A stretch of 51,956 bases of DNA, counting the filler, from Jimgerdemannia flammicorona (Eukaryota): assembly GCA_003990765.1 (NCBI GenBank). It is 2 parts of 2 records of this genome, joined end to end, with 100 filler letters (N's around TTAATTAATTAA, not from the genome) between each part and the next. Parts side by side here need not be neighbours in the genome. Positions count along the whole stretch, not along the records: positions 26,043 to 51,956 come from RBNJ01000775.1; 1 more part is not named here. One strand, given 5' to 3'. The position numbers were made by a program, and so were the translations under genes. The notes under the pieces were generated by a model that was not told the origin of the DNA, did not search any database, and was given only the letters and a program-made list of their open reading frames with translations. Shown here in pieces: positions 4,213 to 51,011 of the stretch (positions are counted from its first letter, which is position 1; each line of letters starts with the position of its first letter).

Positions 4213-4243
4213 GATGGGGTCTCTATTGCAACATTTTTTCAAT

Positions 4244-4447: not shown

Positions 4448-4488
<41 letters not shown>

Positions 4489-13524: not shown

Positions 13525-13555
13525 AAGAGAAATTATATAGTTTCAGACGTATCCT

Positions 13556-15570: not shown

Positions 15571-15664
15571 GATATTAGTAGTTTGTCTCCAGAAACTGTG
15601 TTGAAAGTGTTGCCAAAAGATTGTGTAACCTGAATATTACTGGAGAAAGGTGGAGCAGCATCTG

Positions 15665-25942: not shown

Positions 25943-26042
25943 NNNNNNNNNNNNNNNNNNNNNNNNNNNNNNNNNNNNNNNNNNNNTTAATTAATTAANN
26001 NNNNNNNNNNNNNNNNNNNNNNNNNNNNNNNNNNNNNNNNNN
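25943..26042. other. artificial contig spacer N44-TTAATTAATTAA-N44
   Basis: Exactly 100 nt, symmetric, with a six-frame stop linker in the centre. Confidence 0.95.
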
Positions 26043-26305
26043 CAGACCCTTGACCTCCAGCTCCACCCCCTCTTCCACCGCAGCCCCCCACCAGCAGGCC
26101 CCTCATACTTCCCCCCAAGCCAGGGCCTCTCTCCACTTGCTGCCATTCAAACGCTCCAGGGCCACCCTGCCCAGTACGCACCTCTGGATGCTCGTTGGTC
26201 GCCATGATACTAGTAGCTTTTCTCCAGAAACTGTGTCGAAAGTGTTGCCAAAGGGTTGTGTAACCTGAATGTTACCAGAGAAAGGTGGTGTCTGTGTAGT
26301 CTCTT
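26043..26305 (-). mobile_element. 5' end of a LINE-B-family copy (LINE-D)
   Basis: Highly similar to 15410-15655; ORF1 start MATNEHPEV at 26205. Confidence 0.9.
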
Positions 26306-26309
26306 TCAA

Positions 26310-29300: not shown

Positions 29301-29330
29301 ATACAGAAAAAAGGTATTGTTAGGTCTACT
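26310..29330 (-). mobile_element. decayed LINE (LINE-E): 5' UTR, ORF1 and endonuclease, interrupted by LINE-D
   Basis: ORF1 pieces 28403-28951 and 27539-27838; endonuclease GGDFN and SNH motifs at 26480-26770. Confidence 0.9.
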
Positions 29331-32300
29331 TTCTCTTTATAGTCTCCTATTTATAGTATTAAGCCTTTAGTAATCTGAGATAATGTCTGAGTTTTGCCAT
29401 TTACAAATTGTATAGTTCTTTTATTACTAGGTATTAGCCTGTTTTACTAAATTCTGATTGATAAAATTTCTAGAGACTCCTGTATCAAAGAGAATCTTTA
29501 TGTCTTATCCTTTAACTTAAGCTAGTATTTCAATAAGTTCTTTATTATTAATTGTAGAAATAACTTCTTGTGTCAGATTTTATTTCTTTTTCTCAGTCTG
29601 AATATTAGCTAACTTAGTAGCTCTTCTTTGACTAAGTTTACTTAAACATAAGTAATAGTCATTGAGCATTTTTGCACAATATATGTATATGCCATGAGGG
29701 TATATTTCACATAGTATATACTTATATTTTAGTTGGGAGTACTATTTTTCTTCTTTGGTAGATTTTGTTTCTTAAATAGTAACTACTATTTTGAGCTTCT
29801 CTTTAGTATTCTGAAGTAGTCCTGAGGATCTAAATTCTTTAGTTCCTCTTTCTAAGAGTGGGAAGGTTTTGACTTCTTAAACTATAAGATTATTCTTTAT
29901 AACTTCTACAATCAGTTGTGCTACTTTTTGTCCTAGTAGAACAGTATATTGTTCTTTTCCAAGGTTTCTCAGAATGACTTTAATTTTCATCCTGATATCT
30001 TTTATCAATAATTCCTCCTTCTATTGAGAGGTCATAATCTTTTGCTAGTCTACTTTTTTCTGCTATTCTAGCATAGGTACTCTGGGGTATTTATACAGCT
30101 ATACTAGTTTTTATCACTTGAGATTTTTCTAATAGTATTGTTTATAAGACAGTACTATAAAGATCATATCCTGTATCTATTGAATAGACCTTAGTAGGAA
30201 TGATTGCTTTATAGTAAAGCTTTTTAAATTTGATAACTTCTTTTATCTCAGAGATAGTATCAATGACTGAGATAGTTGAAGGTCTTGAAGAAATGTTTTT
30301 CTCTGGACAGATATTAGACATATATATGTCCTTCTTTTTACAATCAAAGCATTTGCTTTCTTTTCTAAATCTGTCTCTTTCTTCTGAAGAAAGTTTTTGA
30401 AAAGTGGGTTTCTTAAATAATAGAGTTTCTCTGTTCCAATTTCTTTTCCTTTTTCAGAGTTTCTTATGTTATTCTGTTCTCTAGATTTGGTAGTAGCAGA
30501 TACTGCTTATCTGAAGTACTATTGATTATGAGAACAGTCTGCAGAGATTTCCATTTCCTTAACTCTTCTGAATAACTATAGAGAGATACTTTAGAAAAAG
30601 TAATTTGCTCTGATTTCATTAAAGGCATTATTATCAGAATCATAAAGGTGTTCTAATATATTTAAGAAGGCTTCCATTTTTACTGTAAAGGCTTTTAGAG
30701 TTTCTTTGCTTTATTTATCTCATTTCATGACTTCCAATTGTGCTCTTGTATCTGCAAGAAGTAAAGGATTTAAAAAATATCTTTTTAGGAGATATTTAAG
30801 TCCTCTTGCTTCAGAGATTTGTAGATATCCTAGTTGGTCTCCTGTGGCATCTTGTTTAGTAACTTCAATTCTATCTTCCTAAGTAAGAGGTTAGGATTTA
30901 AGTTATAATATCAGAGGGTAGCTAAATCTCAAAAATGTATAGCTACTTTGGTAGGTTGAGCTTAGACTTTTGCAAAGACTTCTTCTGCAGTATATAATAC
31001 ATTCTTTGCTAAGATAGAGTCTGGGTTTCTTTGGTCATTCCAACTGTTGCACTTGTATTCATTATCTACTATACTTATAAATTCTGGTAGATCTATAGAT
31101 GTTCCTCCAAAAGTGAGAATTAATAATACTTTAGCTAGTTGATTCATAATAGCTATTTGTCCTACTAGGTCAGTTAATATTGCTAGTTATCTTATTAATA
31201 CATCAGTAGCTATTATTGGGGTTACTGGTTCAGGTGTAAACTCTGGTCTTCTAAAAGTTTTATCTAAGTCTTCAGAGATTTCTTCAAAAAGTCTTTCAAA
31301 GTCTTCTTCTTCTAAGAGATCTATTGCTTTCTTCTTCTCTTTAGATAATGTATCTAATAGACTTTCTGTTTCAGAAAGGTCTTCTACTGATAGTTTAGAT
31401 TCAGAATCTGAATATCTATCTTCTAGTTCAGATTCTGGTCCTAAGTGAGAAACAGATACTGAGTATAAAGAGGTATAAATTTCTGAGACAAGGGCTTTAA
31501 GTAATTCTCTAGCTTCTAGTAAATTTGCACTAGGTTCTAAACTTGTTAATTCTGGAGGTTATCTTCCTACTAGTATCTATTGTTCAGCAGATAAATATTC
31601 TGTTTGGTCTCTCTCTGAACTAAGTACAGAAGAGGTGTCTGGTTCTTGATATATATTAAAATAGATTATATGTCCTTTGTATTGAATTTCCTAAGTTGTT
31701 ATTTCAAGAGTTTCTAGTCTTTATAGTTCTTGTATATAGATGGTCTTATGACTTAGATATCTGAAGTAAAGATGAATCTTTCTTTCAGTAGAGTGATAAT
31801 AAGAAGAATTAATCTACTGAAGAATAGTAGTTTTTGTTTCAATAGAGATTAATTCAAGAAATTATTCTATTGCTTGAGCAACTGATTCAGATATTTCTGC
31901 TTTATATATATATTGTCTTACAAGTCTGTAAAACTTTTTCTAAAGATCTGTATCCCTTCTTAATACTGGATATAGTTTACAGAATTCTGAATATAAATTT
32001 TAAGCAGAATGTTTAATAAGTTCTTGTTGTTATTCTTTATGTTAACTTTCCCAGTCAACAATAGTCTTTATATTCTGTTTTCCTCTTGTTTGAGAGTCTA
32101 GGGTATCTAGTTACTTCTTAAAGGATATGTTCAGTAACAGCTTATAGGCTGTTTAACAATCCTTTATTTGTCTTATGTCAGATTGGCTCATAGATTCTAC
32201 TGCTACTAATTGTAATAATATATCTTTACTATTATAGTAGTTATACCTTTTAAGTTAATAATCCTTGATATCAATGACTTAAAGGCACTTATGTTAGATA

Positions 32301-32344
32301 TCTTTAGCTTGAGGAAGCAACTGTCTTAATGCCTAAATACTATC
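29331..32344 (-). mobile_element. old Ty3/Gypsy internal region (gag, zinc knuckle, protease, start of RT), heavily decayed
   Basis: Minus strand gives KCFDCKK..HI at ~30325-30356 and IDTG at ~30168-30182; truncated by LINE-E. Confidence 0.65.
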
Positions 32345-33746
32345 TGTTATACTTCTAATTGATCTAGTCTCCTTCTGGTAAACTTGAATAATAATTTGGC
32401 AATCATAGACTTTAATTCTTAAAGTCTAAGTCTTTTAGTATATCTTTTTTTGGATATAGTCTGGTTCTGAGAATTATATTTAGATTCTTCAGAGTTCAAG
32501 TATTTATAGAGTTTGGGGACATCTATTTTTAGATATAGTCTTTTTAGTTTAAGTTATTCAGAGACTTATCTATATACTATGAACTTTTAAGTCTTAATTA
32601 TTCTATAAATATTTTTCTGTCCTTTATTGAGTTACTTGCTTAGGGCTATTTATACATTTTTGAGGACTTTACATATTGACTGACTATTGGTAGACAGAAA
32701 GTCACTAAAAATGATATAAAAAGTTATACCATAATAGTATCATTATGAAGTCATAATAATGATATCATTTTCATATGCTAGTTATGAGATAATTGTTCTA
32801 GATTTTGACTGAGAATTATAATGCAGTATTTCATTATATCATATAGTAGTAATAAACTTCTATATAAGGAATTGGGGATTTTTTATCTAATTCTGTTTCA
32901 GATGAGAAAGAGGTTAGCTCTTTTGAGCTAGCTTCTGATCTTGTGACCTCAGATAATATAATAGACCAGTCAGGGACTAGCCTAACATTTGAGAGAACAG
33001 AAAAGCCAGATGACCAGGTGCTGACAGAGATGGAGACTTATGCAATTAGTCCTTGGAAGAGACCAATGATAGAGTTTAATACCTCATTTTTATATAGTTA
33101 AGCATCATCATTATAATGGTCTTAAAGGTTAAAGTTATTTATAAGATCTAACTCTACTTATATTATGTAGGTATCATTGAGGCTATCAATTTTGATAGGA
33201 GCTATCCCTTATATGCCACTAATGGCAAAGGACATTTCTCTGAACAATTGATAGATATAGAGCAAAATATATTATCTAAATATGGAGATATTATATTTGT
33301 TTAGTATCTCTGAAGTGTTTATACCACTTCTGATAATAAGTCTATCTGCCTGGTAGTTTCTCAATATCATGAAATATCTGGTGATCTGTTGCATTCTTGA
33401 TACAACTTCATCAGCAGCTTGTAGATACTGCTTAAGATCATAGATATTTATATCAATATATTCCCAGAAGAACTGGTGTTGATAGTTAAAGACAGCATTC
33501 CAGAGTGCTTAGTAGATACATTCAGAGAGTATAGGCATGATTTGTTTATATCTTAGTTTTGTTTTTTTTGGGGAGATGTTTATGTATTTATGTAGTAATT
33601 ATTTGAATGATCATTTTCCAGAGTCAATTTACAGAGTATTTATTTGTTTACTAAACAAACTATTTTAGTATATAGTAACTATGATTTCATAGCTTATTAT
33701 AGTTTAGTTTAGCCCATAAAGTCACTGGTCTTAAATATCTTACTAT
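32345..33746 (-). repeat. 5' LTR of the old Gypsy, proximal part (continues at 42605-42917)
   Basis: Minus-strand end TATAACA at 32345, followed by GA and a decayed PBS-like TAGTATTTAGG; matching start TGTTACA at 42917; split by the younger element's CTAT TSD. Confidence 0.55.
32834..33538 (-). pseudogene. LTR-encoded accessory ORF homologue (~234 aa)
   Basis: One frame from ATG 33538 with 7 internal TAA stops and no frameshift; colinear similarity to the ORF at 41501-42358. Confidence 0.7.
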
Positions 33747-33953
33747 TGTCATATAGTGGTTGCTGAGTCCTTCAAATATACCAGATTCTCTTCAAGGTGT
33801 ATCTCTTAGACTAACTCAAGTTTGTTATAAGTAAGTTCTTATTGGAGTGCCTTTCTAAGGTCTTATAGTCCTCAAACTTCTTATCTTTAACTGTCTTATT
33901 ATCTCTTAGATTGCTTGCAAGGAAGTGTATGTATTGCACTGAGAGGAACTGAC

Positions 33954-33986
33954 TTTATTTCAGAGGAAATAAGAGGAGTATTTATA
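33954..33986 (-). promoter_or_regulatory. LTR TATA box (TATAAATA, 33979-33986) and poly(A) signal (AATAAA, 33954-33959)
   Basis: Both motifs are conserved in the 5' LTR (TATA at 41254-41261), which places R near the LTR 3' end. Confidence 0.6.
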
Positions 33987-34225
33987 CAAAATATAATTCA
34001 ATGGTTGCTAAGATATAAAGCTAAATATAAATTCCAATAACTAAAACTACTAAGTTCCAGAGTCGGCACTGATAGTTGTATAGGTTCAGGATGCTGATAT
34101 TATTTAGAATTACATCAAAATGCTAGTGCTGGAACAATTTCATATCACCTCAGAATATTGGTGCTAGCATTATCCAGTGTTACATGAGAATACCAGTGCT
34201 GGCATTATCTAGTGTAATAAAGAAC

Positions 34226-35082
34226 TTAGAGCAGAAAGTTCAGGATCATAGGGGCTTCATCATCATCATCATCATCACTGAAGGAGATGAGATCCATGAA
34301 TTCATCATATACATCATGCATTTTGCATACTTCGCATACTTTGGATATGTCGTACATCTCATATATGTCGAAGTTACATGGGATGACATCATCACCGATG
34401 ATGTCATCACATTCAGCAGTGGGGAAATCAGGAACAAGATCTGGAGCTCTCCAGTCTATAAGATTCTCTTCCACAAAATAGAGGACAAATATGGGGTCTT
34501 GGGGAGATCTAATCTGGATACTTGGGCCTTGGAATACTGAGATCAATCCTTGCAGGAATTGGTCTGGGTTGTCCTGAAGGATAGGATGCCAGAAGTCTTC
34601 TACTTCTTCGCTATAAGAGTGATAGTGGACTAGGCTTCTGTAGCCACTCTAGCTTCTAGTGCATTGATATAGTGGGATGACAGGTCTCTGAAGTCTGAGA
34701 CTCTAACATACTCCAAGTTGGGGATCGACCATGGTGCATATCTGAAGATCTGATGGATCTTCTTAGCTATCCTTATTTTGTATATATCCATGGGAGTGGC
34801 ATCTTGTAGCTCTTGGATACTGGCCTATGGGAACTCCTGGCAGAGGAGGTTTTCTATTTCATACTCCTGCCACATTTGGAGGCATTTGGTAGCAATGGTG
34901 ATTCTTATTTCCATTTTACAGTAGTAGAGAATGAAGTGATAAGGATCTATAGTACTCAGATTGACACAAGGAGTCCTTCTTGAGCAGGTCCCCATGGCTC
35001 TTCTGATGTCTTGGAACATCCTCTCCTCAACTGAGATACCTTGGTGATTCCTTGACCTTGAGGTTTGGTGAGCAGTAGGCAT
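34226..35082 (-). pseudogene. U3-encoded ORF, 3' LTR copy
   Basis: MPTAHQTSRS...APMILNFLL; two TAG stops and a 1-nt deletion near 34613. Confidence 0.8.
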
Positions 35083-35324
35083 TTTATTTGTGGTAAGTCT
35101 TTGAGCTATTTTGGGATTAGTGGTTCTTATTGGTTGCTACTACTGCAGTTTCTTGATTCTTCTTTTATATTCTTCAGGATGCTTGTACTGTGGTCACAAT
35201 GACTCACAGTTGGTCATCATTGCTCATCTCATATGCTGTATGATTTTCTTATACTCCGATCTGGTGGCTTGCAAGGAAAGACTGTCTCCTGTACTGATGT
35301 CATCATTCTGGGGTCACAATTACA

Positions 35325-35334
35325 TCTTCCTCCT
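35325..35334 (-). promoter_or_regulatory. polypurine tract
   Basis: AGGAGGAAGA immediately precedes TGTAA of the 3' LTR. Confidence 0.85.
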
Positions 35335-35637
35335 GAATAAGGATCTTCTTGAGTATCCTTATTCATTGGTCCAGTCCTGAAAAATTTGCTGATCCTATAA
35401 CCTCTGGCAAGGGGTCAAAAAGTAGTGTTTATGGGCTGGCATCTTCTCTTTGTATTTTGGTATGATGGTGAAGGGTTGCTCCCTTCATATAGAGCAAGGG
35501 CCTGATTCTGATCTTGACCAATCAGTTGATGGTTCAAACTCCTCTAACTTCGAAAGTCTCATGGATGAGTAGTTGCCAGTGCCATATCCCTTAGAGAATG
35601 GTCCAGACAGATAGCCTGCTGGTCATGGGACATGCTG

Positions 35638-36880
35638 TTACGATTTATGGACTAGAACCTCACAGGTGGTCATTATGTTTTGCTTCTCTTGTATAGGTTT
35701 GTGGTACTTCTTAAGTCTATTCCTATATACCATGGTAGGCAGTATGGTCTCTGAGATTTTTCTAAGCCAGAAGATAGTTCCCTTGATATCTTGCATGTAG
35801 AAGAGTCCTTTCTATTTGGACTCCAGTTTTCATGACCATGAGGCTTCTATCATATTTCAATACAGTAGAACCTTTTCTCCAATTCAGATGGGTTCTAGGG
35901 CCTTGTGATTCTTTTCTGCATTCTTCTTTGTCAGCACTTGTGACTTGGTGATATAATCTTCAGCCTTCTTCCTGATTTGGTGTAGTCTCCAGATTTCTGC
36001 ATCAACCCATCTCCAAGTTAGGTCTAGATTTGTAGCTGAGGTTCCATCAGAATCTTCTTCTCTGAAGAGCAGCTCTCTTGGGGTAAAATGTGTGCTCTGT
36101 GACTATATATCTCATAGGACAGAGAGGGTGGTTGGGAGATAGTTATCCCAATTCTCATATGTCTCTGAGATCTTCACTAGGATATTCTTGAGGGTCTTGT
36201 TGATTCTCTCTGTCTGTCCATTTTCTTGAGAGTGGTATGTGGTGGTCTTGATGTACTGGATCTTGTATTTCTGATACATTATCTCATAGAATCCATTGAC
36301 AAATTCTGTTCCATGGTCTGTTGTGATTTGCTTTGGTGTCTTGTAGCAGCAGATGATTTCTCAGTGTAGGAAGTCAGCTATAGAGAGGGCATTGGCTTCT
36401 TGTAATGCTCCTGCCTCTATCTATTTAGTGAAGAGGTCTACAATAACTATAATATAGCAGTTTCCTAATAGTGTTACTGGTAGTGGTCCAATGATATCTA
36501 TTGCAATGTGGTGGAAGGGGATAGGCTCAATTCTTGATGACCTAGGTGCCTGGTCTTGCTGATCTTGTTTCTGTTTTTGGTACTTGTCACACCCTTTGAC
36601 AAATTGGCATAGGTCTTCTTCTATCTTGGGCCACTACATAGTTCTTCTTGCCTTGTCATATGTGTTGGTTCCTCCTAAGTATCCTTGCTCATGTACTTCC
36701 TTCATTACTTGATACTTCTTATGTTCAGGTATTACTAGCTTTCCTTCTTTTCTGAATATAGTGTTGTCTAATTCAAACTGTTTCCAAGTCCAGTTGATGA
36801 TAGTGATTGTCCAGGGTTCAAGGTGGTTGGGCATCTTCCACTACCCAAGATAGCTGATTAATCCATAGTATAACTCCTTA
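35638..36880 (-). pseudogene. integrase (HHCC, DDE, GPY/F)
   Basis: VHEQGYLG..CDKY, HIAIDIIGPLP, TTDHGTEFVN, YHSQENGQTERINKTL, NRLKKYH; TAA at 35638-35640. Confidence 0.92.
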
Positions 36881-36910
36881 TTCATATTAAATAGTCTTGA
36901 TGGGAGTATT

Positions 36911-38300
36911 TCAGGGTGTCCTTGAGAGTGCATCAGCATTGGTATTGGTCTTTCCTAAGCAGTGCTTGACAGTACAGTCATACTCTTGCAGTCTGTAGAT
37001 CCATTTGACATATATTCCTTTGGGGTTCAGAGTGTGAAATAGCCAGGCAAGAGTGGAATGGTCTGTTTGAATAGTGAAGTGTTTCCCAGCTAGGTAGTAG
37101 TGGAACTTGTCTACTGCCCAGACTACTGCTAAATATTCAAGCTTGTATGACTCATAGTTCTGTTCTGCTCTGTGAGTATCTTGGCTTATATAGGAGATAA
37201 CATATTTATGTCTATCTTTCTTCTGAGCTAGGACTGCTCCAAGTCCTATAGTACTCACATCTGTCTGCAGGATGAATTCTAGGTTCCAGTCTGGTCTTCT
37301 GAGGATGAGTACTTGGGTCAACCTGGTCTTGAGTTCATTGAAGGTTTCTTAGTGCTCTTTGGTCCATTCAAATTTGGTCTCCTTCTTCAGTAGCTTATAG
37401 ATAGGTGCTGCAATATTGAAGTATCCTTTGATGAATTTTCTGTAGTAGCTGGCCAGTCCAAGGAAGGCGTGGACTTCTGTAGTTGTTCTGGGTCTTGGGT
37501 AGGCTGCAATAGTCTTGATCTTTATGGGGTTTGTGTGGATTCCAGTCTGGTTGATGAGATGTCCTAGGTAGGAAATTTCTTGAGCTGCAAACTTACATTT
37601 CTTGGGCTTGATATAGAGGCCATGCTCCTTGAGTCTCTTGAGGGCTAGCTGTATGTGATTGATATGTTCCCATGCAGTGTTGCTGAAGATGATCACATCA
37701 TCAATATAGACAAAGAGCCATTTTCCAATCTTATTACTGAAGACTCTGTTCATCATTTGCTGGAAACTTGCTGGAGTATTGTACATTCCAAATGGCATTC
37801 ACAGATAGATATAGGTGGTGTCAGGTGTGATAAAGGCTGATTTCTCACTGGCATCTTGAGTGAGATTGATCTGATAGAAGCCTGAGAACAGATCCAAGGT
37901 GGTGTAGTATTTGGCTTCACTTCTAAGAGTGGTAAGGATTTCTTGAATATTTGGCAAGGGCTGCCTATCCTTCTTGGTGATGGCATTGAGTTTTCTGTAG
38001 TCAATGCAGAGTCTTGGTACAAACTCTCCAGGCTTGCTTCCTTTCTTCAGGGCTAGGACAATAGGTGAGGCCCAGGGGCTAATAGCTTGCTTGATGATTC
38101 CAGCTTCTTCTATTTCCTTAAGTTCTGCTTGCAGCCACTCTCTGTAGGCAGGTGGTATGAGTCTGGCTTTCTGGTAGATAGGCTTGGTATCACCAGTGTC
38201 AACTTCATAGTAGTACTTGGGTTCTTGATTGTAGATATCCCTAAAGTCTGTAGCAAGTACTCCTTCATTCTGGTGCAGGATCTTGAGAAGTTGTTCCTCT
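36911..38300 (-). pseudogene. reverse transcriptase and RNase H
   Basis: SPWASPIV, RLCIDYRKLN, LDLFSGFYQI, MPFG, YIDD; TDVS..GLGAVL, TDHSTL, NADALSR. Confidence 0.97.
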
Positions 38301-38394
38301 AGGGGAAAGTTTTCTCTAATGATATATGTGTACTTGTTCTGGTCCTTGTCTTTCTTATGCTCAAGTTCGGTAATCTTGGTGGCAGCATAGGCTC

Positions 38395-38820
38395 CTCTTC
38401 CAGTAGATCCAAAGCTTTGTTCTCCTCTCTTGGTCTTGATGAGTTTGATGGCTTCAATGATCTTGGGCTTCTTGACTTCGTGGATCAGCATCTAGCCAAT
38501 CCTGTCATGCTTCTTGACTTCGAAGGGGGTGGTATGGTTGTGATTTCTGACTATAAGGAAGATCTCACCAGTGTAATCAGGGTCAATTACTCCTCCTTCA
38601 ACTGAGATTTTGCTTTTGGTCAGACTGCTCCTGGTCTTGATAATTCCGGCATGGTTTTCTAGTAACTTGACTCCAATTCCAGTACCAAGTAGGGTAGTGG
38701 TCTGTGGTTCAAGGGTAGTATCTTGAATGCTGGTAAGGTCTATTTCTATGGCTCCTTCAGTCTTGTATTCTGGGATCTTGGCTTCAGGGTAAAACTTCTT
38801 GACCTTGAGGGTGATGTCTG
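38395..38820 (-). pseudogene. dut: trimeric dUTPase domain within pol
   Basis: GAIEIDL (motif I-like), TRSSL (II), GVIDPDYTGEI (III), DRIG(Q>*)M (IV), RGEQSFGSTG (V). Confidence 0.93.
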
Positions 38821-39149
38821 ATTCTTGTTCCTCCTCATTATCACTGTCAGCTTGAAGCTCTGGGGGCTGGTCATCTTCTTCAGCTTTCTTTTTTGCTTCA
38901 GTGACTTCTTGCTCATATTTCTGTTGGCAGATTTTCCTAACTTCACTGATATAGGACCAGTAGTCATTCAGGTGTTCAGAGTAGTATATCCTAGTACTAT
39001 GGGGGCATCTTCCTTGAGAGGCATAGCCATCGATAATCTTGTTGTACCACTGCTCATTTGTGAGCTTGGGTGTCTTGTTCTTGTTCTTATTCACTGAGTA
39101 CATAAAGACCTCTGTGTTCTCTTCATCTCCTTCCTCTATGTCTGGTAGG

Positions 39150-39530
39150 ACTCCTTTGTGGACATTGATAGAGACTCATACCTTTCTTCCTCTATAGTTG
39201 ATCTGCATCTTCTGGGCATTGAGGTCAATAATGGCCTTGGCCTTGTGAAGCCATTGGTTGCCAATGAGGATATTATAGTTGGTGGTGCTTGTAACAATTA
39301 CGTCTACTGGGATGGTAGCTCTTCCTATCTTGATGGGGACTTCTCAGATTTTGCCAAGGGGGGTAGCTCATATACTATCTGCTATGACATAGACCATCTT
39401 GGTAGACTCTTCAATATCTCAACCTAGGTGGTCAATTGTCTTCTTGCTCATGAGGCATCCTCCAGCACCAATATCAATGATGGCATCAAAGATACAATCT
39501 TCAATCTGATATGGAGTATAGGCTGATGTC
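39150..39530 (-). pseudogene. aspartic protease
   Basis: DAIIDIGAGGCLMS (decayed DTG) and downstream IILIGNQWL. Confidence 0.85.
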
Positions 39531-39697
39531 TTGTGCTGGTCTTCAGATTCTTCACCTAAGTTCTCAGATTCTTTCTGTGCATTGTGAGCATCTACAATCT
39601 TGTACTCTTGGTTCTTGGCAGTAGTTGCAAGTTCTACTCTCAACTGCTGTCTGAAGGCAGAAACTTCAGCTAGCTGTCTAAAAGTGGCATTGACCTT

Positions 39698-40965
39698 CTA
39701 TTCCTTGAGGTCCTTGTAGATGTCATACTGGTGGATCTTGGTCTTGCACAGCTTCTGTTCCTTCTTGCTTTCACTTTCTCCTGAGACTGGAGTAGTGCCT
39801 TCTATGATTTGGTGGACAGCTTCATCTAACTCCATATCTTGATCAATCTCCTCAGGTTGGGTCTTGCTTTGAATAGTGACAGCTGGGGTCTTCTTTGGTC
39901 TTCCAACTGGCTTGTTGTTGCTCTTCTTATCATAGGGCTTGGACCAGGTTCTGGTACCTTCAGTAGCAGGGTAGAATTCGAGCTTCTTATAGTATTCTTT
40001 ATCATCAGTATCACCAATCTCCTCGATGACTACTATATTGGTTTGTTCTCTGGTTCTGCTAGCATTGCTTGGTTGGGCTTTGTGTCTTGTTTCAGTCATA
40101 CAACTCTTTGCATAGTGGCCTTCTTCTCTACATCTGAAGTATGTGATATTGCATTCTTCTATAGCAGCTGCAAATCTCTGCACTGGTCTCCTGTTGGCAC
40201 TTCAGACTTCTCTAACAACATCACTAAGGTATACAGTTATCTTGGTGAACTGCTTGGCAAGTTCCTCCACTGGGTCAGCTTTGGCTGTCTTGGGGGTAGG
40301 TGGGGTTGGTTGTCTGTTTACAACTGTGGTAGATATGATACTAGTTGGCTTTGATGGCTCTATCTTGATGCCAGTTATTTTCTCCATTGAGTGTTCGGCA
40401 GGGTGTCTGGTAGTCCAATATCTCTGTACAAAGACCACTTTCTGATCAAGAGTCAGTGCAGCTGGGGTAGACTGGATTGCTAGGGCAATTTCAAGATGAA
40501 CTCCTTTAAGGAAGGTTGAATCTGCTATTTGTTCCTTGAGGTGGTCATCATAGCCAGCCAAGACAATCTGGGCAGATTCAGGTATAGAATGAGTTGGGAT
40601 CTTCACTAAGTCCCTGGCAGATAGTATTGAGTTGATTCTTGAGAGCTTGCTTGATCTCTTTAGTATAATATATTGTTCTGAGGAAGGTTTTCATGTTGGT
40701 AAGTTTGGCTGCACCAGTATTAGCAATGGTGGCTGCATTGAACTTATCTCTGGTAGGTCCTCTGAGGCTGACTGGTAGAAGGGCCAATTGTGCATCCATA
40801 CCAAGGGCTCGTATAGCAGCAAATTGTTCAAAGTCTTCAATGAAGATCAGGATTAACTCTTCAATAGTATATCCATAGAATGTGGGGGGATATATTTCTA
40901 TCTTGTCTTGAATTCTTGCAGGGGTGACTCTTGTAGTCAGGGTAGTTGTTGTGGGGATTGTTCAT
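39698..40965 (-). pseudogene. gag with zinc knuckle
   Basis: PPTFYG..FIEDFE, ICQGLSEDPNSFYT, YFRCREEGHYAKSC (decayed CCHC). Start approximate. Confidence 0.85.
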
Positions 40966-41000
40966 TTTTCAGCTTGAAAGTGAGGAATTTGTCTTGAATC

Positions 41001-41018
41001 ACCAGCCAATGGACACCA
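41001..41018 (-). promoter_or_regulatory. primer-binding site (PBS; tRNA unassigned)
   Basis: TGGTGTCCATTGGCTGGT begins 3 nt after the 5' LTR end TGACA. Confidence 0.65.
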
Positions 41019-41021
41019 AGT

Positions 41022-42600
41022 TGTCACATAGTGGTCACTGAGTCCTTCAAATATGCCAGATTCTCTTCAAGGTATATCTCTTAGACTAACTCAAGTTTGT
41101 TATAAGTAAGTTCTTATTGGAGTGCCTTTCTAAGGTCTTATAGTCCTCAAACTTCTTATCTTTAACTGTCTTGTTATCTCTTAGATTGCTTACAAGGAAG
41201 TGTGTATATTGTACTGAGAGGAACTGACTTTATTTCAGAGAAAATAAGAGGAGTATTTATACAAAATATAATTCAATGATTGCTAAGATATAAAGCTAAA
41301 TATAAATTCTAATAACTAAAACTACTAAGTTCCAGGGTTGGCACTGATGGTTATACAGGTTCAGGATACTGGTATTATTTAGTATCACATCAAAATATCA
41401 GTGCTAGAACAATTTCATGTCACCTCAGAATACCAGTACTAGCATTATCCAGTGTTACATGAGAATACCAGTGCTGGCATTATCTAGTATAACAAAGAAC
41501 TTAGAGCAGAAAGTTCAGGATCATAGGGGCTTCATCATCATCATCATTATCACTAAAGGAGATAAGATCCATGAATTCATCATGCAGGTCACACATTTCA
41601 CATACTTCGCATACTTCAGGTATATTGCATGTCTTGTATATGTCGAAGTCATGTGGGATGATGTCATTGCTGATGACATCATTATATTTGGCGGCAGGAA
41701 AATCAGGAACAAGATCTGGAGCTCTCCAGTCTATGAGGTTCTCTTTCACAAAATAGAGGACAAATGTGAGATCTTAGAGAGATCTAACCCGGATGCTTGG
41801 GCCTTGGAATACTGAGATCAATCCTTGCAGGAATTGGTCTAGATTATCCTAAAAGATAGGATGCTAGAAGTCTTCTACTTCTTTGCTATTGAGAGTGATA
41901 GTGGACTGAGCTTCTGTAGCCACTCTGGCTTCTAGTGCATTGATATGGTGGGATGATAGGTCTCTGAAGTCTGAGACTCTAACATACTCCAAGTTGGGGA
42001 TCAACCATAGTGCATACCTGAAGATCTGATGGATCTTCTTCGCTATTCTCATTTTGTGTATATCTATAGGAGTGGTATCTTATAGCTCTTGGGTGCTGGC
42101 TTATGGAAACTTCTGGTAGAGGAGGTTTTCTATTTCATACTCCTGCCATATTTGGAGGTATTCAGTAGCAATGGTAATCCTTGTTTCTATTTTGTGGCAA
42201 TAGAGAATGAAGTGATAAGGGTCTGCAGTACTCAGATTGATACTAGGAGTCCTTCTTGAGCAGGTCCCCATGGCTCTTCTGATGTCTTGGAACATTCTTT
42301 CTTTGACTGAGATACCTTGGTGATTCCTTGACCTTGAGGTTTGGTGGGCAGCAGACATTTCATTTGTGGTAAGTCTTTGAGCTATTTTGGGATTGGTGGT
42401 TCTTATTGGTTGCTGCTATTGCAGTTCCTTGATTCTTCTTTTATATTCTTCAGAATGCTTGTACTGTGGTCACAATAACTCACAGTTAGTCATCATTGCT
42501 CATCTTATATACCATATGATCTTCTTGTGCTCCAATCTGGTGGCTTACAAGGAAAGGCTGTCTCCTGTGCTGATATCATCATTCTGGAGTCACTGTTACA
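41022..42600 (-). repeat. 5' LTR (1579 bp)
   Basis: Direct repeat of 33747-35324; contains degenerate ~33-bp tandem units at 41340-41490. Confidence 0.95.
41501..42358 (-). pseudogene. U3-encoded ORF, 5' LTR copy (285 codons plus stop)
   Basis: ORF-track pieces 42101-42358, 41864-42052 and 41501-41749 share one frame; 858 nt in total with three point stops. Confidence 0.8.
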
Positions 42601-42604
42601 CTAT

Positions 42605-42917
42605 GTAGCTTCTGATATCAGAGGGCTGATGATATCAGTGACTAATTTTAATATACTCTAGTTTCTATAATATCATAGACTAAGTTTATAATATTAATAT
42701 AGCTAAAGACTAATTTAGTCTTATGCTATTTTTAGCATCCTTAGTGTATTTCTGAGGCATTTCCATAGTGATGTCAGTGTGAGTACACACTAAACTAGTA
42801 TAGAGACTAGTATAACTACTATGATATTGCTGGCTGAAAAGGGCTGAAATTAGTATAAAATCATTATGATCTCACTAATATTCTTAGTTTTTCTAGTATA
42901 TAATCTTACTTGTAACA
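42605..42917 (-). repeat. distal part of the old Gypsy 5' LTR
   Basis: Follows the right TSD and ends in tgtaaca (minus-strand TGTTACA). Confidence 0.5.
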
Positions 42918-42959
42918 TGAATCTGATAATGTCAGCCTGGTGATATCATCCTTTGTAAT

Positions 42960-45061
42960 GTTGGAATGTAATTTCATTACAAGAAAGTTGTAAATTGAAA
43001 TAGCAGAATAAATTATTAGATATTTTTGCCAAGTTGTAAGATCTGTTATATATTAAAAGCTCTTTAATATTACAATAATATCTTTTAGCAACTACCAAGT
43101 ACAATCTCCAATGATATATTATTACAAATCTTTATTAGCTATAACTATTAAATTTAAGAGCTATTAATAAAAATTAATTTATTAGATTATCTAAACTTTT
43201 ATAATAAGTTACTTAAGTACAATCATGATATTATAGTGACATAACTGAATAAATATAAGACCACTGCAATTTGGTGAAATATCATCTATATGCTCCTGTC
43301 ATATTAATAATAAAATCTTTTTAAATATAATTATCTCTGATAATTTAATAACTTGTTCAATTATTAAATATATTGAGTTTTACTAAGTTTTAATATTCAA
43401 AATAAGTTTTATTAGATTATTGATTACATAAGCTTTACATTTAATGCAGTAAATCTCTCATAATATTATAATAATGACCAGATCTTAATAATACTTATTC
43501 AGAGACTTAAAATTATTTCTCTATTATCATCAGCCTTCAGATAGATTAAAAAGGCCTGAACAATCAGATTAATAATATGAGCCATATAGCATATATGTTA
43601 TATTGGCTGATAGTTGAGACTATGATCAAACTCTATCTCAATTGTTGTTAAATATATTATCTGTTGTTATAGTCAATATCTAGAGTAAAAAATTAATAAT
43701 TTAAAATATAAAATAACTATTTTTTGAAAATCCAACCTTTTTCAAAAATCCAAAACTCAATCTGTTTCAAAAACCCAATTTGTTTTAAAAACTCAACTTA
43801 TTTTGAAAACTCAACCTTTTATAAAAATCCAACTAAAAACTGATTTTTTTCAAAAACCTGACCTTTTTGAAAATCTGATATGATAAGACTCACTTACTCT
43901 TTATATATCTTTATTTATATACTAAAATCTTGAATATAGCTCTCAAAGGCACTAGTAATATTTTTACTAAAATGAGATTTTAATAGTTTAATATAATCAA
44001 TTAATATATAGTTGAGTTGCCAATTTTGACAAATTCAATATACATTAATTTTAAGAAATATATATATATTTAGAAATATTCATATATCAATAGTAAAGAG
44101 TATTTGATCTGATATATTCTATTTCTAAATAAATTAAATCAAAATGAGATTAATTTGAAATATTAGAATTAATATTCAAAGTTAGAATATTAGATCTTAT
44201 CTGTAGTATAATTTTGATAGTATTATGATTTTATTGAAAGGCCAGTTTAATTTCACTTCATATTATTCCAGCAGAAGAAATAGTAATATCTAGTTTCAGA
44301 AGGTAAAAAATATCTCTTAGCTCTAAATTCTCAATAACTATAAAAGGCTAACTATCATAGATAATCCAGTAAATAAGTATATCTTGAAATAAATTTATAG
44401 AAAATCTTAGCTATTTAATATAAAAGAGAAATATCAAATAATAATAAATTAATAAGAAAAACAAAAAACAAAAAACAAAAAACAAAAAATAAATAATATA
44501 AACTATTTTTTCAAGAAAAATAATTCTATTACTTCTACTTGATAACTTTTATAAAATTTGTCAAAATATACCTATAAATTTATTATAGAGCTACTAATAA
44601 ACTTATATATTATTTTATAGTAATTACATTTAATTCTTTTGATGTCTTCATTCTTCTCATACTCTTTTGTAAACTTTTTCCAAATACTAGAGCATTCTTT
44701 TGCTTTTGCTTTTTCTTTCTAGGACTGTTGTATTGAGACTGCACTTGTTATAGCTATGCTTATTGAAGCTATATCTAACACTGAAGCTATTGCTATAATA
44801 TCTATCATAAGTGATAATATAGAAGATATATCTGATATACTTGATTGTGACATTGCTTGATTGCTAAAAAGAGTATATATATATTGTTGTTGTGAGTTGT
44901 ATTATATATAAGTTTTGAATTACCATACTTAGGCTTAAATTTTGAATTTAATTTTGAAATTCAAAATTTGAACTTTGAATTCAATTTGAATTGTGACTTG
45001 ATTTTATTTGAATTGAAACTTAAATTGAATTGAACCTCAATTTGATTCATTGGAAGTACTA
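42960..45061 (-). mobile_element. hAT DNA transposon relic (BED finger plus transposase, with probable introns)
   Basis: SSIWKKF...IKCNY (BED, ~44620-44700), WIIYD..PF.VIE (~44335-44372), ILTITTDN (~43655-43680), MAHIINLIVQAF (~43550-43587); terminus agtacta at 45061. Confidence 0.8.
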
Positions 45062-45540
45062 GAGGTGACTATATAGTAGGGTTGGATAGATATTCTAATT
45101 AGAAAGAATAAGAGGAATATTGGAAATATTAGATATTGAGGGATGCAGAGTGGTATAGAAAGTATAGAGAAGGTCAGGCTGGAGCCCCTTGACTGTTAAG
45201 TCATATTATTGCTCAGTGAAAAGAAGAGAGCACTTGGAGTGAATAAGAGAACTACAAGATATAGGTACTATGGTAATAGAGGAGATTGACTATCTGAGAG
45301 ATAACTTTAATATAATATAGGATAGGTAGTTAGACAGAACTAATGGAGAGAGGGGAATGGCTGATAAAAGTAAGAGAATAGAGAGCTGAGAGAAGATTGA
45401 GAGGCTGAGCTTACTAGTAAATACTGGACATCTTGAGTGGAAAGATTACAGGGTCTATACTTACTGAGTAGTAAGACTAGGTTCAAGAATTAACTAGATC
45501 TTGACTACTGAGTACTAGAGAGTAGATATCTGAAAAACAT
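45062..45540 (+). pseudogene. LINE endonuclease fragment
   Basis: Decayed GGDFN (gataactttaat) and VYTH..GSRID motifs, homologous to LINE-A 4460-4950. Confidence 0.8.
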
Positions 45541-47714
45541 ACTCCTTTCTTTATAAGTTCTTCTATTTCCTTATCAGACAGTTTCTTAAATCTACTTTAT
45601 AGTCTTAAGGACTCATTTCAAGATTTATACTTTTTTTTTAATTAATATCATTTGTCTTCTTTGTTGTTATTTCTGTTCTCTTTAGCTTTTGGGCTATAAA
45701 GATAGTATATGCTCTAGTAACAACTTATTCTAAATATCATTGCTTATATGGATAATTATAAAGTCATCTTTATTCATAAATATTTTCTGATAATTATAAT
45801 TATTTAGAGATAACATCAAAGAAGTAGACAGCTTAGATTTTATTTATAGTCTGTTCTTATTAGTTATATTTTACTCTTATAGTATTCAGAAGGATCTCTA
45901 GTTTTGTAGTAAATACTTTAAGATCTTCTTTTTCATCATTATTGAATCAAAGGTTCTTGAGCTTGGTTCTAGCTTCAGCAATGTAAGCAGAGCTACAGAA
46001 CTGTTGGATGATTAGTTTCTTTAGGCTCACAGTAGCTGAGTAGACTTTATAATTAGAGTAATCATTATTTCCTTTACTTATATTGATTTCAGTATAGGTT
46101 TTCCAGATAAGATGATATACTGATAAGTTGTACCACCACTAGATAGCTATATCTATGAAATAGGTGGCAACTTTTTTTACTTGTGAGCTTATAGTTATAT
46201 AAAGATCTTCAATCTCATAGTACTTATTATTATTGAGAGTACTATCTAGATTTCAATTATCATTTTATCTATTAGTATGATAATTGATATTAACTTGTTC
46301 TATAAATATTATTACTTAGTTTGCTTTGTCTTCAAATAGTATGAAATAGAGGTCTTTTATTAGTTTATTTGTTTTAATACTAAGATAAAGGGCTTTAGTG
46401 AATATAGTTACTTAGTCAGTCAGTGCTACTATCTTATCATCTACTGATATCATTCTGCTATCTCTGTTATCTATTTGGTAAGATAGTTGGGGTTCTTCTT
46501 CTGTTATTATGGTATGTTGATTGTAATTTGAGATTGACCCTTCTATGATATCACTGAGATGGGTAAGCTTATAGGCTAATAGTCTTAATGAGATGACTAT
46601 TAGATCTGCTGCAATTTTTAGTAGGTTTGATATTCTTAGTAGTAGTTCTGTAATAGTGCTGAAATCACTAATGTTAGATTCAGGTATCTCTTCAATTATT
46701 CTCCTAGGTTTGGATGATATAGTAGATATTTTACTAGATTTAGTAGTTTGTAGTTCTTGTTCCTAAATTATTCTCACTTATATATAGAGAATTTAATAGT
46801 AGAAGTGAGATTTCTTTTAGTAGATATAGTATTCTTTATAGTTTAGAAAGACCTTGGCTTTATAGTAGTAATTATTGGAAAGGAGATTCAGAAAATATTT
46901 ATATATAGTCTCAATAGATTCTCATATACATTTTTTATAAAAGTATCTATCAACTAGCTTATTAAATTTCTCTTTAAGTTTAAAGATATAGAGGACTTCT
47001 TTATTGAGTATAAGGAAGATATTAAATACTTCTTATATGATTTTGTTATTGAGTTTATTAAACTTCTCTTGACTGATATAGATTTCAATCTACTTAATAA
47101 TAATATCTAGAGAATATTTAGAGTGAAAGTACTTCTTAACTATTGTCAACAATATTAGCAATATTGACTGATTCTGATTATCTATAGTAGATTCTTAAAG
47201 AAAGATTTTTCATGAGTAGAGAGTAACTTCTACTATTACTAAATTATAATAAAACTATATATTGATAGAATTAATATATTATAGATAATTAAGCTAAGTA
47301 TTGATTCTAAGTTCTAAGTTCTTATAAAAAAAATATTAAGTTCTAATTATCTGTTGTAGTAAAGTCCAGATATCACTTTTGAGTTCTTATACTAGTAGTA
47401 GTACTATACTTATATCTTAAGTTAATTAAACTCAGAAATATTAATAAGTCAGATTTGAGAGTTCTATAATAAGAATACTACTTTATTCTTATATTCATAA
47501 AAGGCAGAGCTGAGATTATAATATACTCAGTATAGAGAGTATTTATATATATTTAAGACTAAAACTAAATATAATATACTGAGTATATATATATATATAT
47601 ATACTACTATAACTACTAGTTAGAAATTTTATAAGAATTTTTATAGAAATTTCTATAAAAATTTCTATTAGAATTTCCAGTAGCTTATAGATATATATAT
47701 AATAATTTGTTACA
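45541..47714 (-). mobile_element. Gypsy gag relic with a putative short LTR (47352-47714)
   Basis: VATYFIDIAI*WWYNL gag motif at ~46125-46172; candidate LTR TGTAACA...CTACAACA. Confidence 0.55.
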
Positions 47715-48589
47715 GATTTTATAAGCTTTAGAAGATTTCTTCTATTAATTTAATAGTAATTTTCCTTTTTAAAATATTTAAAAATATTTAAAAATATCTA
47801 TATTATAATAGTTTTAGTTTCTTTAAGAGAAAGTAACTAAGTTCTAAAAAGTTCTAATATATAGATCTAAATAGTTTAAGGAGATATTTTAAATTTAAGT
47901 TATTCTTGAAGATTTTTGAGAGAAAATATTCCAAGCTTTATTCAAGCAGACAGAAGAGATATTTATATAAGATCTGAAAGAAAGATCTAAGAAATCAAAA
48001 GAAATACTGAGAAAATATCAAAATAAAGTTTAGGCTAAAGATAATTAAGAAAGTCTACTAGTTTTCATAACTAGCTAAAGTAAGATACTTAGTAATTAAA
48101 ACTTCAGAAGTATGTTGTAGTTTATCTATAAACTATCTTTATTTTATTTTATTTTATTTTATTTATTATAAAAAGAGAGATAATTTTATTAAAGTTATAT
48201 AGATTATATATTTCACATATTACTGATAAATAATATATCAAGTTGTCATCTTAATACTTTTGCTCAATAAGATATATAACTTAAAAAAGACTACAAGTTG
48301 ACAGTAAAAATGTAAACTAGAATAAAAAGTAATATAATATATACAAAAACTAAAACTATATATAATCTAAATTATAACTATCTAAGAATTTTTATGAGTT
48401 GAAAAGTATTCTGAAATATCTATAATATTTGAAATACTTATAAAAATATAACATATGTAATCTATAGAATTCACTCATAGATAAGAAATATCAATATATA
48501 TATATAATGATAAGAGAGACTTTTTATAGCCTGAAAAATATTCTATGATAAACTAAATACTAGTATATAGCTTATAAGATCCATTCCTT

Positions 48590-49474
48590 TAACATATTGC
48601 TTGAACTTTGGTATTGAAAGAGCTTTTGTAAGTGAATTGGTAATTATATACTCTATAGAGATATATTCTAAGTATATAATATTATTTTTTATATATTTTT
48701 ATATAAAATTATGCTATATATTAATATATTTCATTCTACTATAATGTACTGAATTCTTAATGAGTGCAATCATAGATAGGTTATCTCAGCATAATATAGT
48801 ATTCTAATTTTGAGTAAATCTAAGTTCTTTTAATAACTTATATATTTACCATAAGATAATAGACTCTTTTCCATTTTCATTAATATAGAAGAGATACTTA
48901 GTTATAGATTAACAGTCATCTAGATTATCTGCTCAATTGATATTATATATATTAGATAGCTAGATGCTATTTCTCTTATTATTACTCTTACTTAATCTAA
49001 TATTACTAAAGGTAAGTATATAGTATACCATATCTTTAAGATATTTGAAAATTCTCTAAATAGTACTCTAATATAAGTTATCATAGTAGAAGAAATACTA
49101 TACTACCTTATTTATAGTATATAATATATTAGACCTTATTTCTAGTATAAGATATATAAAAACTAACTGCTTACTAATAGGGAATATTTTTATTATTATC
49201 TTTAGCACTATTTTTGATAGATATATTGTCATCATTCTCAGATATAGTATTCAGCTTTCTTAACTTTATAAAAATATCCATAGAAATATCAATGGGTTTA
49301 TATTAAAATATTCAAGAATTGTTTGAATATATATCACTTATAAGAGATATATAACACATATATTCCTATTATATATAATAGATATCTCCAAAAAGAAAGA
49401 TATATCATCTATATTAGTTATCTTGAATTCTCAGTATAGGGCTTCTTTAACTCTATTAAGTTGATTCTTACTAA
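48590..49474 (-). pseudogene. Ty1/Copia RT-RNase H relic
   Basis: EFKITNIDDISFFLEI (EFEMTDLG..FFLGI), decayed TRPDI, SRMKYINI.HNFI (RTKHIDI), NSLTKAL. Confidence 0.8.
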
Positions 49475-51011
49475 TGTAATAGACCAAAATGTACTACCCA
49501 AATTATAACTTAGCCAGATGACGCAAACAATTAGCATACTTACTCAGCATGATGTAACTTCCAGTGTATCATAGTTACTCATACCTGCTATACTTATAAT
49601 TAGCCAAGACACCAGATCAGAATTGTTTATCTGTGTCCTGTGGACACACTTATGTCCTGCGGACACACTCATGTCCGGCGGACACACTCATGTCCTGTAG
49701 ACACACTCATGTCCTGTGGACACACCTGTACTCAGAAGACACACCCAAACATTACCAAAGATAGCAAACCTATAGTTAGCCACATAGTAACCAGATAGCA
49801 ACCAACTTGTATAAATTACCCCAGAGGTGAGAGTGAATAAAACCTCAGTCTGAATTGAAGTGCAAACCAAAGAAGCCTCTAAAGATTGAGCAATTGGTCC
49901 TCTTATTCTCACTCTGGTCCACTTTCCGATACAAAGATTGATTGGTTTGCTTGCCAGATAAGCCTGAAGATTTGCTGCCTAAGTTCAAGGAGAACTTCGC
50001 TGCCTTTTGAAGAACCTGCTGCTTAAGGAATAAGCCATACTTTTGGTACACTTGCCAGATAAGCCTGAAGAATCCCAGTTTCCCACCAAGTTTAAGGAAG
50101 AACTTCACCGCATTCCCAGAAAGCCACCTTGCTCAAGCCAGTTTCTGATGCAACTTCACAGTGATCTGTTCGCACAAACGAAGCCAGTCTTTGACACAAC
50201 TTTGCCAAGAGACCCTTTCCAAGCTGCCATCCCGTTTCCCAGTTAAAGCCTGCCATTTCTGAGTTATCCACTGTATTCCCAGTTGAAGCCAAGTCCGTGC
50301 CATCCGAGTTAATTCCCAGTTAAGCTGCCATTTTCAAGAAGTCTGCCGATTCAGGAAGAACCCATGTCATCTACTGTTTTCAAGTTATCTGCATTCCCAG
50401 TTAAAGCCACTGATTCAGGAAGAATCCACACCATCGTATTCCCAGAAAAGCCACCAAATCAGGAAGAACCCTGAGTTATTATTCCCAGAAGAGCCATCTG
50501 AGTTATCTGTTATTCCCAGTGAGCCTGTTACAGAAGAATCCACACCATATAATTCCCAGTGAGCCAAATTGAGTTATCTGCCGAATTATCAGAACATCCG
50601 CATAAGGAACCTGTCACGCTATACAGAGATTGTCATACCAAGATCGTCATGCAGAAATCGCATAAGGAGAACTGCTAAATTACCAGACCATTACACACAA
50701 GGAGATCATCGTGCTACACAGAAATCACCTGTTACTCAAGAAGGAAACCGCTCGCACTACATACAAATTCTGCCATTTCCAGTTGACCCAGGAAGGAAAC
50801 CCATTCACACAAATTACCACTACACCCAGAGAACTGTCCCAATAAGGAAATCACTTGCAGATATCCAGCTTGACTATTATACCACTAAGCACCAAGGACC
50901 TCAGGAATCTTAGAACATTTTGTTACTTTTTGACAAAGTAACTGGGGGCTCAAGCCAAACTACATCAACCCTCAACCTTGTAATTTGCCTCCATTGAGCT
51001 GGCACATTACA
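49475..51011 (+). repeat. 5' LTR (1537 bp) of a less-decayed LTR element inserted in the Copia relic
   Basis: TGTAAT...ATTACA termini; TATAAA at ~49810 and AATAAA at ~49836; followed by a PBS. The partner LTR is outside the window. Confidence 0.75.
49634..49726. repeat. 19-bp tandem repeat x5
   Basis: tgtcctgtggacacact(c/t)a units. Confidence 0.9.

Follow-up and report, generated by a model that had tools for sequence, protein, structure and literature searches.

A probable accessory gene inside the long terminal repeats of a dUTPase-bearing Ty3/Gypsy element from Jimgerdemannia flammicorona

A reading frame in both long terminal repeats

The stretch of DNA analysed here, referred to as the window, comprises 51,956 nucleotides (nt), filler included, from the Jimgerdemannia flammicorona assembly GCA_003990765.1; it consists of two parts joined end to end, of which positions 26,043 to 51,956 come from record RBNJ01000775.1. 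Its minus strand carries at 33746-42600 a degenerate, dUTPase-bearing Ty3/Gypsy element in which stops break every internal frame. Both long terminal repeats (LTRs) of this element contain the remains of a frame of 285 codons. Judged from its intact relatives, this frame probably represents a real accessory gene of about 270-325 codons, borne in sense orientation by the LTR of a Gypsy family. LTRs are usually treated as non-coding control regions, which annotation pipelines mask and in which gene callers ignore or mislabel open reading frames (ORFs). The features that concern this gene directly are the following:

33746..42600, minus strand: whole element, in the order LTR, gag (CCHC), dUTPase, reverse transcriptase (RT), RNase H, integrase, LTR
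41021..42600, minus strand: 5' LTR, starting with TG; the CA end lies at 41022 if the repeat is read as TG..CA
33746..35324, minus strand: 3' LTR, 89.7% identical to the 5' LTR
41501..42358, minus strand: LTR gene, 5' copy, a pseudogene of 285 codons plus stop with 5 internal stops
34226..35082, minus strand: second copy of the LTR gene, in the 3' LTR, a pseudogene disrupted by 2 stops and by a 1-nt deletion near 34614

The two LTRs align over 1580 columns with 89.7% identity and one 1-nt gap, which agrees with the length of about 1.58 kb given in a preliminary description of the locus; 157 of the 162 substitutions are transitions. No third LTR copy is found within the window. The same ATG-to-TAA frame, beginning 243 nt into the LTR, is present in both repeats exactly where that description had placed it (42358-41501 and 35082-34226). 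In the 5' copy it is interrupted at codons 86 (TAA, site 42103), 93 (TAA, 42082), 165 (TAG, 41865), 170 (TAG, 41851) and 195 (TAA, 41776), and in the 3' copy at codons 86 and 151 (both TAG) in addition to the deletion. The earlier lesion list was thus right about the two TAG codons and the shared stop but had missed the TAA at codons 93 and 195. Its statement that the lesions complement each other holds: codons 93, 165, 170 and 195 are sense in the 3' copy, while the 5' copy has no lesion at codon 151 or at the deletion site, so that codon 86 is the only lesion common to both. In intact relatives, all six stop positions hold Gln or Trp, except that a metagenome contig termed L001 has Glu or Ala at two of them. 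The proposed origin of the shared stop by a CAR>TAR change fits as well, with Gln at this position in three close relatives and Glu in L001.

Further copies of the family are represented by short contigs from three soil-metagenome runs and one further run (2128, 422, 192 and 211 contigs per run), which are 85-99% alike to the window over the LTR and the adjoining gag region. Runs X3 and X6-X13, with only small shares, were left out of account. At site 41851, i. e. the stop at codon 170, these other copies carry the sense letter with 244.7 of 249.3 depth in run X1, 60.4 of 60.4 in X2, 11 of 13.8 in X5 and 40.5 of 40.5 in X4; this is the only stop site of the 5' copy among the best 40 of 364 differing sites. 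Compared with the window, the other copies in X1 show 86 A>G and 58 T>C differences, as against 43 G>A and 27 C>T. Their cover stops at the LTR edge, with a depth of about zero beyond 42648. Two contigs run from the LTR start (42600) into the polypurine-tract sequence that adjoins the 3' LTR of the window, and hence the gene-bearing LTR is part of full elements elsewhere too.

Whether a C site differs between the LTRs depends strongly on the next base: 53% of CpG, 30% of CpA, 21% of CpC and 2.8% of CpT sites are affected. This dependence points to a directed C-to-T process, either similar to repeat-induced point mutation (RIP) or based on deamination of methylated C. The sparing of CpT together with the heavy loss of CpA is closer to fungal RIP than to plain CpG decay. 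The two window copies were inactivated at about the time of insertion or later, by C>T and G>A transitions, and survive as pseudogenes. For the stop that they share at codon 86, either two parallel hits or inheritance from the parent copy would account. Selection after insertion, which a dN/dS (ratio of nonsynonymous to synonymous divergence) of 0.30 between the LTRs might seem to indicate, was considered and rejected: once the C/G content at each codon position is taken into account, the differences at codon positions 1, 2 and 3 (38, 20 and 48) fit neutrality (p = 0.21), and the ratio is an artefact of the transition-only spectrum.

Intact relatives and purifying selection

The gene was assessed through naturally intact relatives. 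A word-based search with the translation of the 5' copy, in which stops were written as X (P0001), recovered 5 homologues among 204 candidates, and a search of 1,835,955,588 representatives with a family profile yielded 5 small metagenomic clusters and nothing else. The intact homologues, all of them public metagenome proteins or encoded by contig L001, have 247-342 residues. The protein P0003 (271 residues) is open throughout, from its MPxxxQTSRSR start to its ILNFLL end, and shares 61% identity with the window frame; a tblastn search with P0003 covers 42358-41504 of the window (E 7e-108). More distant members, P0010, P0011 and P0012, are 32-40% identical to the window frame and match only the two LTRs in the window (E 1e-40, 4e-34 and 3e-8, respectively), as is the case for all four family members used in tblastn searches. 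A further distant member, P0013, was obtained by cluster look-up. Among the motifs common to P0010-P0013 and the window frame are W[HQ]EYEI, AKKxHQxFRHxP, WNPxLxDxPDQ and F[QE]GPxI.

At the DNA level, a first metagenome scan and a scan of viral_contigs gave no other related locus, and a second metagenome scan gave only L001. This 1345-nt metagenome contig is collinear with the window LTR and contains an intact frame of 323 codons within a stop-free run of 343 codons. In 1000 dinucleotide-preserving shuffles of L001 the longest run had a median of 92 and a maximum of 194 codons, and none of the 1000 reached 323. The open frame that the preliminary description had proposed to look for is hence found in nature, in P0003 as well as in L001.

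Comparison of the window with L001 yields a proportion of differing nonsynonymous sites (pN) of 0.23-0.25 and of synonymous sites (pS) of 0.74. The resulting dN/dS of 0.08-0.09 (bootstrap 0.06-0.24; 209-211 codons), i. e. about 0.1 and well below the neutral value that the description had named as the alternative, is only approximate because synonymous sites are saturated, and the plain pN/pS, about 0.32, can be taken as a safe upper value. Differences at codon positions 1, 2 and 3 amount to 0.33, 0.23 and 0.50. Length changes likewise preserve the frame. The conserved part shows 65% nucleotide identity between window and L001 with 3 gapped columns, which form one in-frame codon, whereas the stretch from the stop codon to the downstream TATA box shows 47% identity and 52 gapped columns. 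Although the length of the acidic tail is variable in all lineages, the frame is restored at the C-terminal motif each time (P0002-P0005, P0009, P0011, P0013, L001 and both window copies). Taken together, intact homologues, a dN/dS of about 0.1, codon periodicity and frame-preserving indels bear out the original proposal of a protein-coding gene in the LTR, which in its intact relatives is, as judged by these sequence comparisons, under purifying selection.

One might object that there is no gene at all, and that the open frames arose by chance or by gene-caller ascertainment in a conserved non-coding LTR. Both window copies are indeed broken, and a protein database necessarily contains only copies that happen to be open. 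Against this stand the coding-type periodicity, a pN far below pS, the frame-preserving indels, the stop-free run of 343 codons in L001 compared with a shuffle maximum of 194, and the protein motifs kept at 32-40% identity in P0010, P0011, P0012 and P0013. By these signatures, a chance or non-coding origin can be regarded as excluded for practical purposes. A duplicate of gag or an extension of pol was also considered and rejected, as the family proteins match only the LTRs and the L001 frame is closed by a stop inside its TATAAAA box.

A different possibility is that a piece of a host gene was captured into the LTR and is carried passively, with no role for the element. LTR elements do acquire extra ORFs, for example the ORF3s of bdelloid rotifers according to the available part of that study (PMC5408684), and the protein family is devoid of a recognisable retroelement domain. 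Yet, the exhaustive profile search returned only the 5 small metagenomic clusters and no cellular homologue, and no longer or fused form of the protein was found, although the latter is weak evidence. Moreover, the frame is open and constrained across lineages that are saturated at synonymous sites and in which the adjoining LTR has diverged almost beyond alignment, which argues for selection within the element lineage. Passive capture is quite improbable.

Position of the gene within the LTR

The frame is flanked by boxes that recur in both LTRs:

42438..42448, minus strand: GAATATAAAAG box of the 5' LTR, 87 nt ahead of the ATG; candidate promoter for the LTR gene
35162..35172, minus strand: the same GAATATAAAAG box in the 3' LTR
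41253..41263, minus strand: TGTATAAATAC box of the 5' LTR, presumed promoter of the genomic RNA, kept in L001
41229..41234, minus strand: AATAAA of the 5' LTR, 27 nt after the start of the TATAAATA box
33978..33988, minus strand: TGTATAAATAC box of the 3' LTR, with AATAAA at 33954-33959

The TATAAAA that had been reported about 80 nt before the ATG is thus confirmed, at a distance of 87 nt. The GAATATAAAAG box is identical in both window LTRs and in L001, where it lies 65 nt before the ATG. As had likewise been described, the frame lies upstream of the TATA/AATAAA pair of the LTR: 238 nt separate the frame end from the TGTATAAATAC box, and the TATAAATA/AATAAA pair is found about 240 nt past the stop codon. 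L001 also carries the TGTATAAATAC box and AATAAA past its stop. From the TATAAATA box to AATAAA the distance is 25-27 nt in window and L001, and the intervening sequence has diverged.

Such a conserved spacing points to a genomic transcript that begins at the poly(A) signal or shortly past it. If so, only the signal of the 3' LTR would be used, and the gene would lie in U3, the unique 3' region of the LTR. A location in U3, between the TATAAAA box and the TATAAATA/AATAAA pair, is most likely on the strength of these motifs. In addition, the exact retention of TATAAAA within a poorly conserved stretch suggests a second promoter, which would give rise to a short mRNA.

Alternatively, the gene could be real but reside in a very long R, the terminally repeated part of the LTR. 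The TATAAAA box would then be the genomic promoter, the frame would be the first ORF (ORF0) in the 5' leader, present a second time at the 3' end, and the TATAAATA box further downstream would have no role as genomic promoter. The upstream box is exactly kept between window and L001 in the midst of a poorly conserved stretch, and ORFs upstream of gag are known from plant Gypsy elements, such as ORF0 of Retrosat2 in the accessible portion of that report (PMC3485330). However, the spacing of about 25-27 nt between the TATAAATA box and AATAAA, kept in both lineages, is the classical arrangement for a start at the poly(A) signal or shortly past it, and with an R of 1.2 kb every genomic transcript would contain an active poly(A) signal at 1.2 kb from its start. 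This arrangement is accordingly rated as unlikely, with somewhat more room left for it than for passive capture.

The encoded protein

The protein, probably soluble, combines a basic, arginine-rich start and a predicted helical core with a long acidic end. Its first 45 residues contain 7-10 Lys or Arg but only 2 Asp or Glu in P0003, L001 and the window copy, the three close members of full length, and the final third is highly acidic and rich in bulky hydrophobic residues. In 5 of 7 sequences examined, the last 60 residues have a net charge of about -13 to -16. Two tail motifs persist across subfamilies, namely [DE]DLIxF and P-x-[IV]-LNF (short forms DLIxF and xLNF). A reading of DLIxF as a clathrin box or as a LC3-interacting region (LIR) was not adopted, since the last motif position varies. 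With a maximum 19-residue Kyte-Doolittle hydropathy of 0.47-0.74 in three members, no membrane segment is apparent. Of the tail features put forward in the preliminary description, the acidic character is shared by the family, while the CEVC stretch is peculiar to the window subfamily: it belongs to a Cys-rich tail insertion (window 41605-41691) that is absent from all homologues and reaches a depth of 3.9 in X1, compared with hundreds to thousands in most other LTR bins.

On the opposite strand, a frame of 135-137 residues (41408-41815 and 34127-34540, plus strand) overlaps the acidic tail in both LTRs. Translated through GAT repeats, it is Ile-rich and probably arises incidentally from the low complexity of the tail.

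AlphaFold models for P0003 and for the L001 core show the same secondary-structure pattern at low confidence (mean predicted local distance difference test, pLDDT, of 52.6 and 55.7). The predicted pattern consists of a short helix, a long helix, several short helices, a beta hairpin over xPYFVEENxIDW and a disordered tail. Neither the window pieces nor any of the 11 members (11/11) matched Pfam at E below 0.01, and a profile search of PDB sequences gave 0 matches at E up to 10. With the low-confidence model, Foldseek reached a best E of 0.54 in PDB and 0.17 in BFVD, and the wide VIA fold search a best Z of 3.8; MarR-like rows near Z 3 in the latter were dismissed as noise level for helical models. 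The ESM Atlas returned at best 0.91 to an unnamed cluster, with recognition below threshold. For the possibility raised beforehand that the protein is an already described LTR-element domain, these searches gave no counterpart in Pfam, PDB sequences or folds, which with models of this quality does not show that none exists. If the gene is real, the sequences would define a new protein family for which no Pfam, PDB or fold relatives were found, the fold searches having been made with a low-confidence model.

The host element

The remaining features of the element are as follows:

42601..42604, minus strand: target-site duplication ATAG, 4 bp, partner at 33743-33746, with the LTRs read as TG..CA
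35325..35334, minus strand: polypurine tract AGGAGGAAGA, adjoining the 3' LTR on its upstream side
38492..39175, minus strand: dUTPase frame upstream of RT (PF00692, E 6.5e-17, 62 bits, cut-off 22)
36911..38491, minus strand: RT (PF00078) and RNase H (PF17917) frames by Pfam

Within the last of these, RVT_1 spans 38491-37349 and RT_RNaseH 37348-36911, both on the minus strand. The integrase is represented by a weak rve_3 match at 36360-36112 (minus strand, E 0.0025) and gag by a weak zf-CCHC match (E 0.0078), both under the Pfam cut-off; the Pfam search of the element frames reported no protease family. The pol order of RT, RNase H and integrase is of the Ty3/Gypsy type, and the LTRs are direct, bounded by TG..CA and flanked by the duplication. 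The segment that follows the 5' LTR (40980-41020, minus strand) starts with TTGGTGTCCATTGG and differs from the common initiator-Met primer-binding site. The named Atlas cluster nearest to the RNase H is commonest in Basidiomycota.

Gypsy elements with a dUTPase have been described from fungi, including PosPlaTy3-5 of Postia placenta with the dUTPase between protease (PR) and RT, elements of Phanerochaete, and Tmt1 of Tuber (PMC2864245), as well as from bdelloid rotifers (PMC5408684). In the portions of these reports that were available, the elements resemble the one in the window in having the dUTPase just upstream of RT in pol, and no LTR-borne gene is reported for them there.

The flanks of the element (42601-50000 and 30000-33745) have a GC content of 24-30%, compared with 40-44% inside the element. 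Its surroundings form an AT-rich, repeat-filled region.

Comparison with known systems

Sense ORFs in or overlapping U3 are known from vertebrate retroviruses, namely sag of mouse mammary tumour virus (MMTV), which encodes a superantigen, and nef of human and simian immunodeficiency viruses (HIV/SIV) and bel/bet of foamy viruses, which overlap the 3' U3. Genes of the MMTV sag type share with the window gene a sense frame that is part of the LTR, is duplicated with it and would hence also be carried at the 3' end of genomic RNA; the frame precedes the LTR promoter, in the window the presumed one. The searches gave no relation in sequence or fold of sag, nef or bel/bet to the window protein, and Sag is a type II membrane glycoprotein, whereas the window protein is without a hydrophobic segment. 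The window gene further differs from the sag type in that the whole frame, its candidate promoter and its candidate terminator lie inside one LTR. If the gene is real, the arrangement of an accessory gene in U3 would extend from a few vertebrate retroviruses to retrotransposons of a soil eukaryote.

Accessory ORFs of LTR retrotransposons include the additional ORFs (aORFs) of plants and brtn of Boty (PMC7264820), ORF0 of Retrosat2, RIRE3 and RIRE8 (PMC3485330) and the ORF3s of bdelloid rotifers (PMC5408684). As far as the available text of these sources goes, they are similar to the window gene in being family-specific, of unknown or non-canonical function and conserved within lineages. A further parallel is CERV of the Caenorhabditis elegans Ty3/Gypsy element Cer1, an accessory protein that acts in the nucleus on the element's own RNA (PMC10309623). 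In the accessible part of that study, CERV is specific to its lineage, non-enzymatic and without homologues outside its group, as is proposed for the window protein; by its description there it lies outside the LTR, which sets it apart from the window gene. By analogy, CERV is a plausible functional model for the window protein. All of these ORFs, CERV included, are placed by the sections consulted in the internal region of their elements, whereas the window family matches only the two LTRs. The window protein also differs from env-like ORF3 in that it has no hydrophobic segment and in that its frame starts 243 nt inside the LTR.

For an ORF inside the LTR of a retrotransposon, the open literature, which leaves out most subscription journals, gave only MMTV and the internal-region ORFs, and the phrase 'in the LTR' is absent from the available text of the plant aORF review. 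Within this literature, no description of such an LTR-borne gene in Ty3/Gypsy elements was found. The family may also provide a clean case for studying which accessory needs LTR retrotransposons have beyond gag and pol.

Possible function

Acidic transcriptional activators such as Tas of foamy viruses combine a DNA-binding part with an acidic-hydrophobic tail and activate the LTR. For the window protein, what can be compared is its composition, with a basic N-terminus and an acidic tail rich in bulky hydrophobic residues. This composition is compatible with a transactivator or an anti-silencing factor, as suggested in the preliminary description, but non-specific.

Conceivably, each LTR constitutes a self-contained unit, in which the TATAAAA box starts an mRNA of about 1.2 kb that ends at the LTR's own AATAAA, and the genomic RNA would also carry the frame, as its 3'-most ORF. 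The protein itself could then be a nuclear, trans-acting factor that serves the family as a regulator or adaptor and not as an enzyme, either by activating the LTR promoter or by docking host factors via its tail motifs. As models, Tas- or Tax-like activators, RNA factors resembling CERV or Rev, and anti-silencing factors come into question. On the basis of composition and motifs, a role as activator or adaptor can be proposed only tentatively. The same reserve applies to the wider idea, speculative at present, that the LTR is an autonomous cassette of promoter, 270-325-codon gene and terminator for a trans factor whose dose scales with copy number, be it an activator or an anti-silencing factor, and which docks via DLIxF and xLNF. 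If the LTR were such a cassette, there would be two expressed copies per insertion and one per solo LTR, and the dose of the factor would follow the LTR count. Solo LTRs, usually seen as dead remnants, could then stay expressed genes that supply a trans factor.

Several points weigh against the LTR gene and the function proposed for it, beside the approximate nature of the dN/dS. Only one related DNA locus, L001, is at hand, and it is a partial LTR that lacks internal sequence. Both the placement in U3 and the gene's own promoter are read from sequence motifs. The structural models are of low confidence and have no fold match, and the functional proposal is drawn from composition and motifs. 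Finally, the stop at codon 86 may mean that the parent copy was already without a working gene, in which case the gene would be dispensable in cis.

Other observations in the window

Outside the element, four related stretches with 68-76% identity are found at 2000-8000 (plus strand), 10000-16000 (minus strand), 20000-26000 (plus strand) and 26000-30000 (minus strand). They make up the direct repeat families D3-D11 and the inverted pairs I1-I5, and have about 50% GC with a GC skew of +/-0.37 to 0.52. The strand of the RT frame is G-rich and C-poor, with RVT_1 matches at 5974-6468 (plus strand) and 10914-11576 (minus strand). A 37-nt poly(A) run is located at about 4450-4486 in one such skewed stretch. 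These four stretches may be elements resembling long interspersed nuclear elements (LINEs) whose composition or mutational history is strand-asymmetric. The two 44-nt runs of N (25943-25986 and 25999-26042) are filler at the junction of the two parts of the window.

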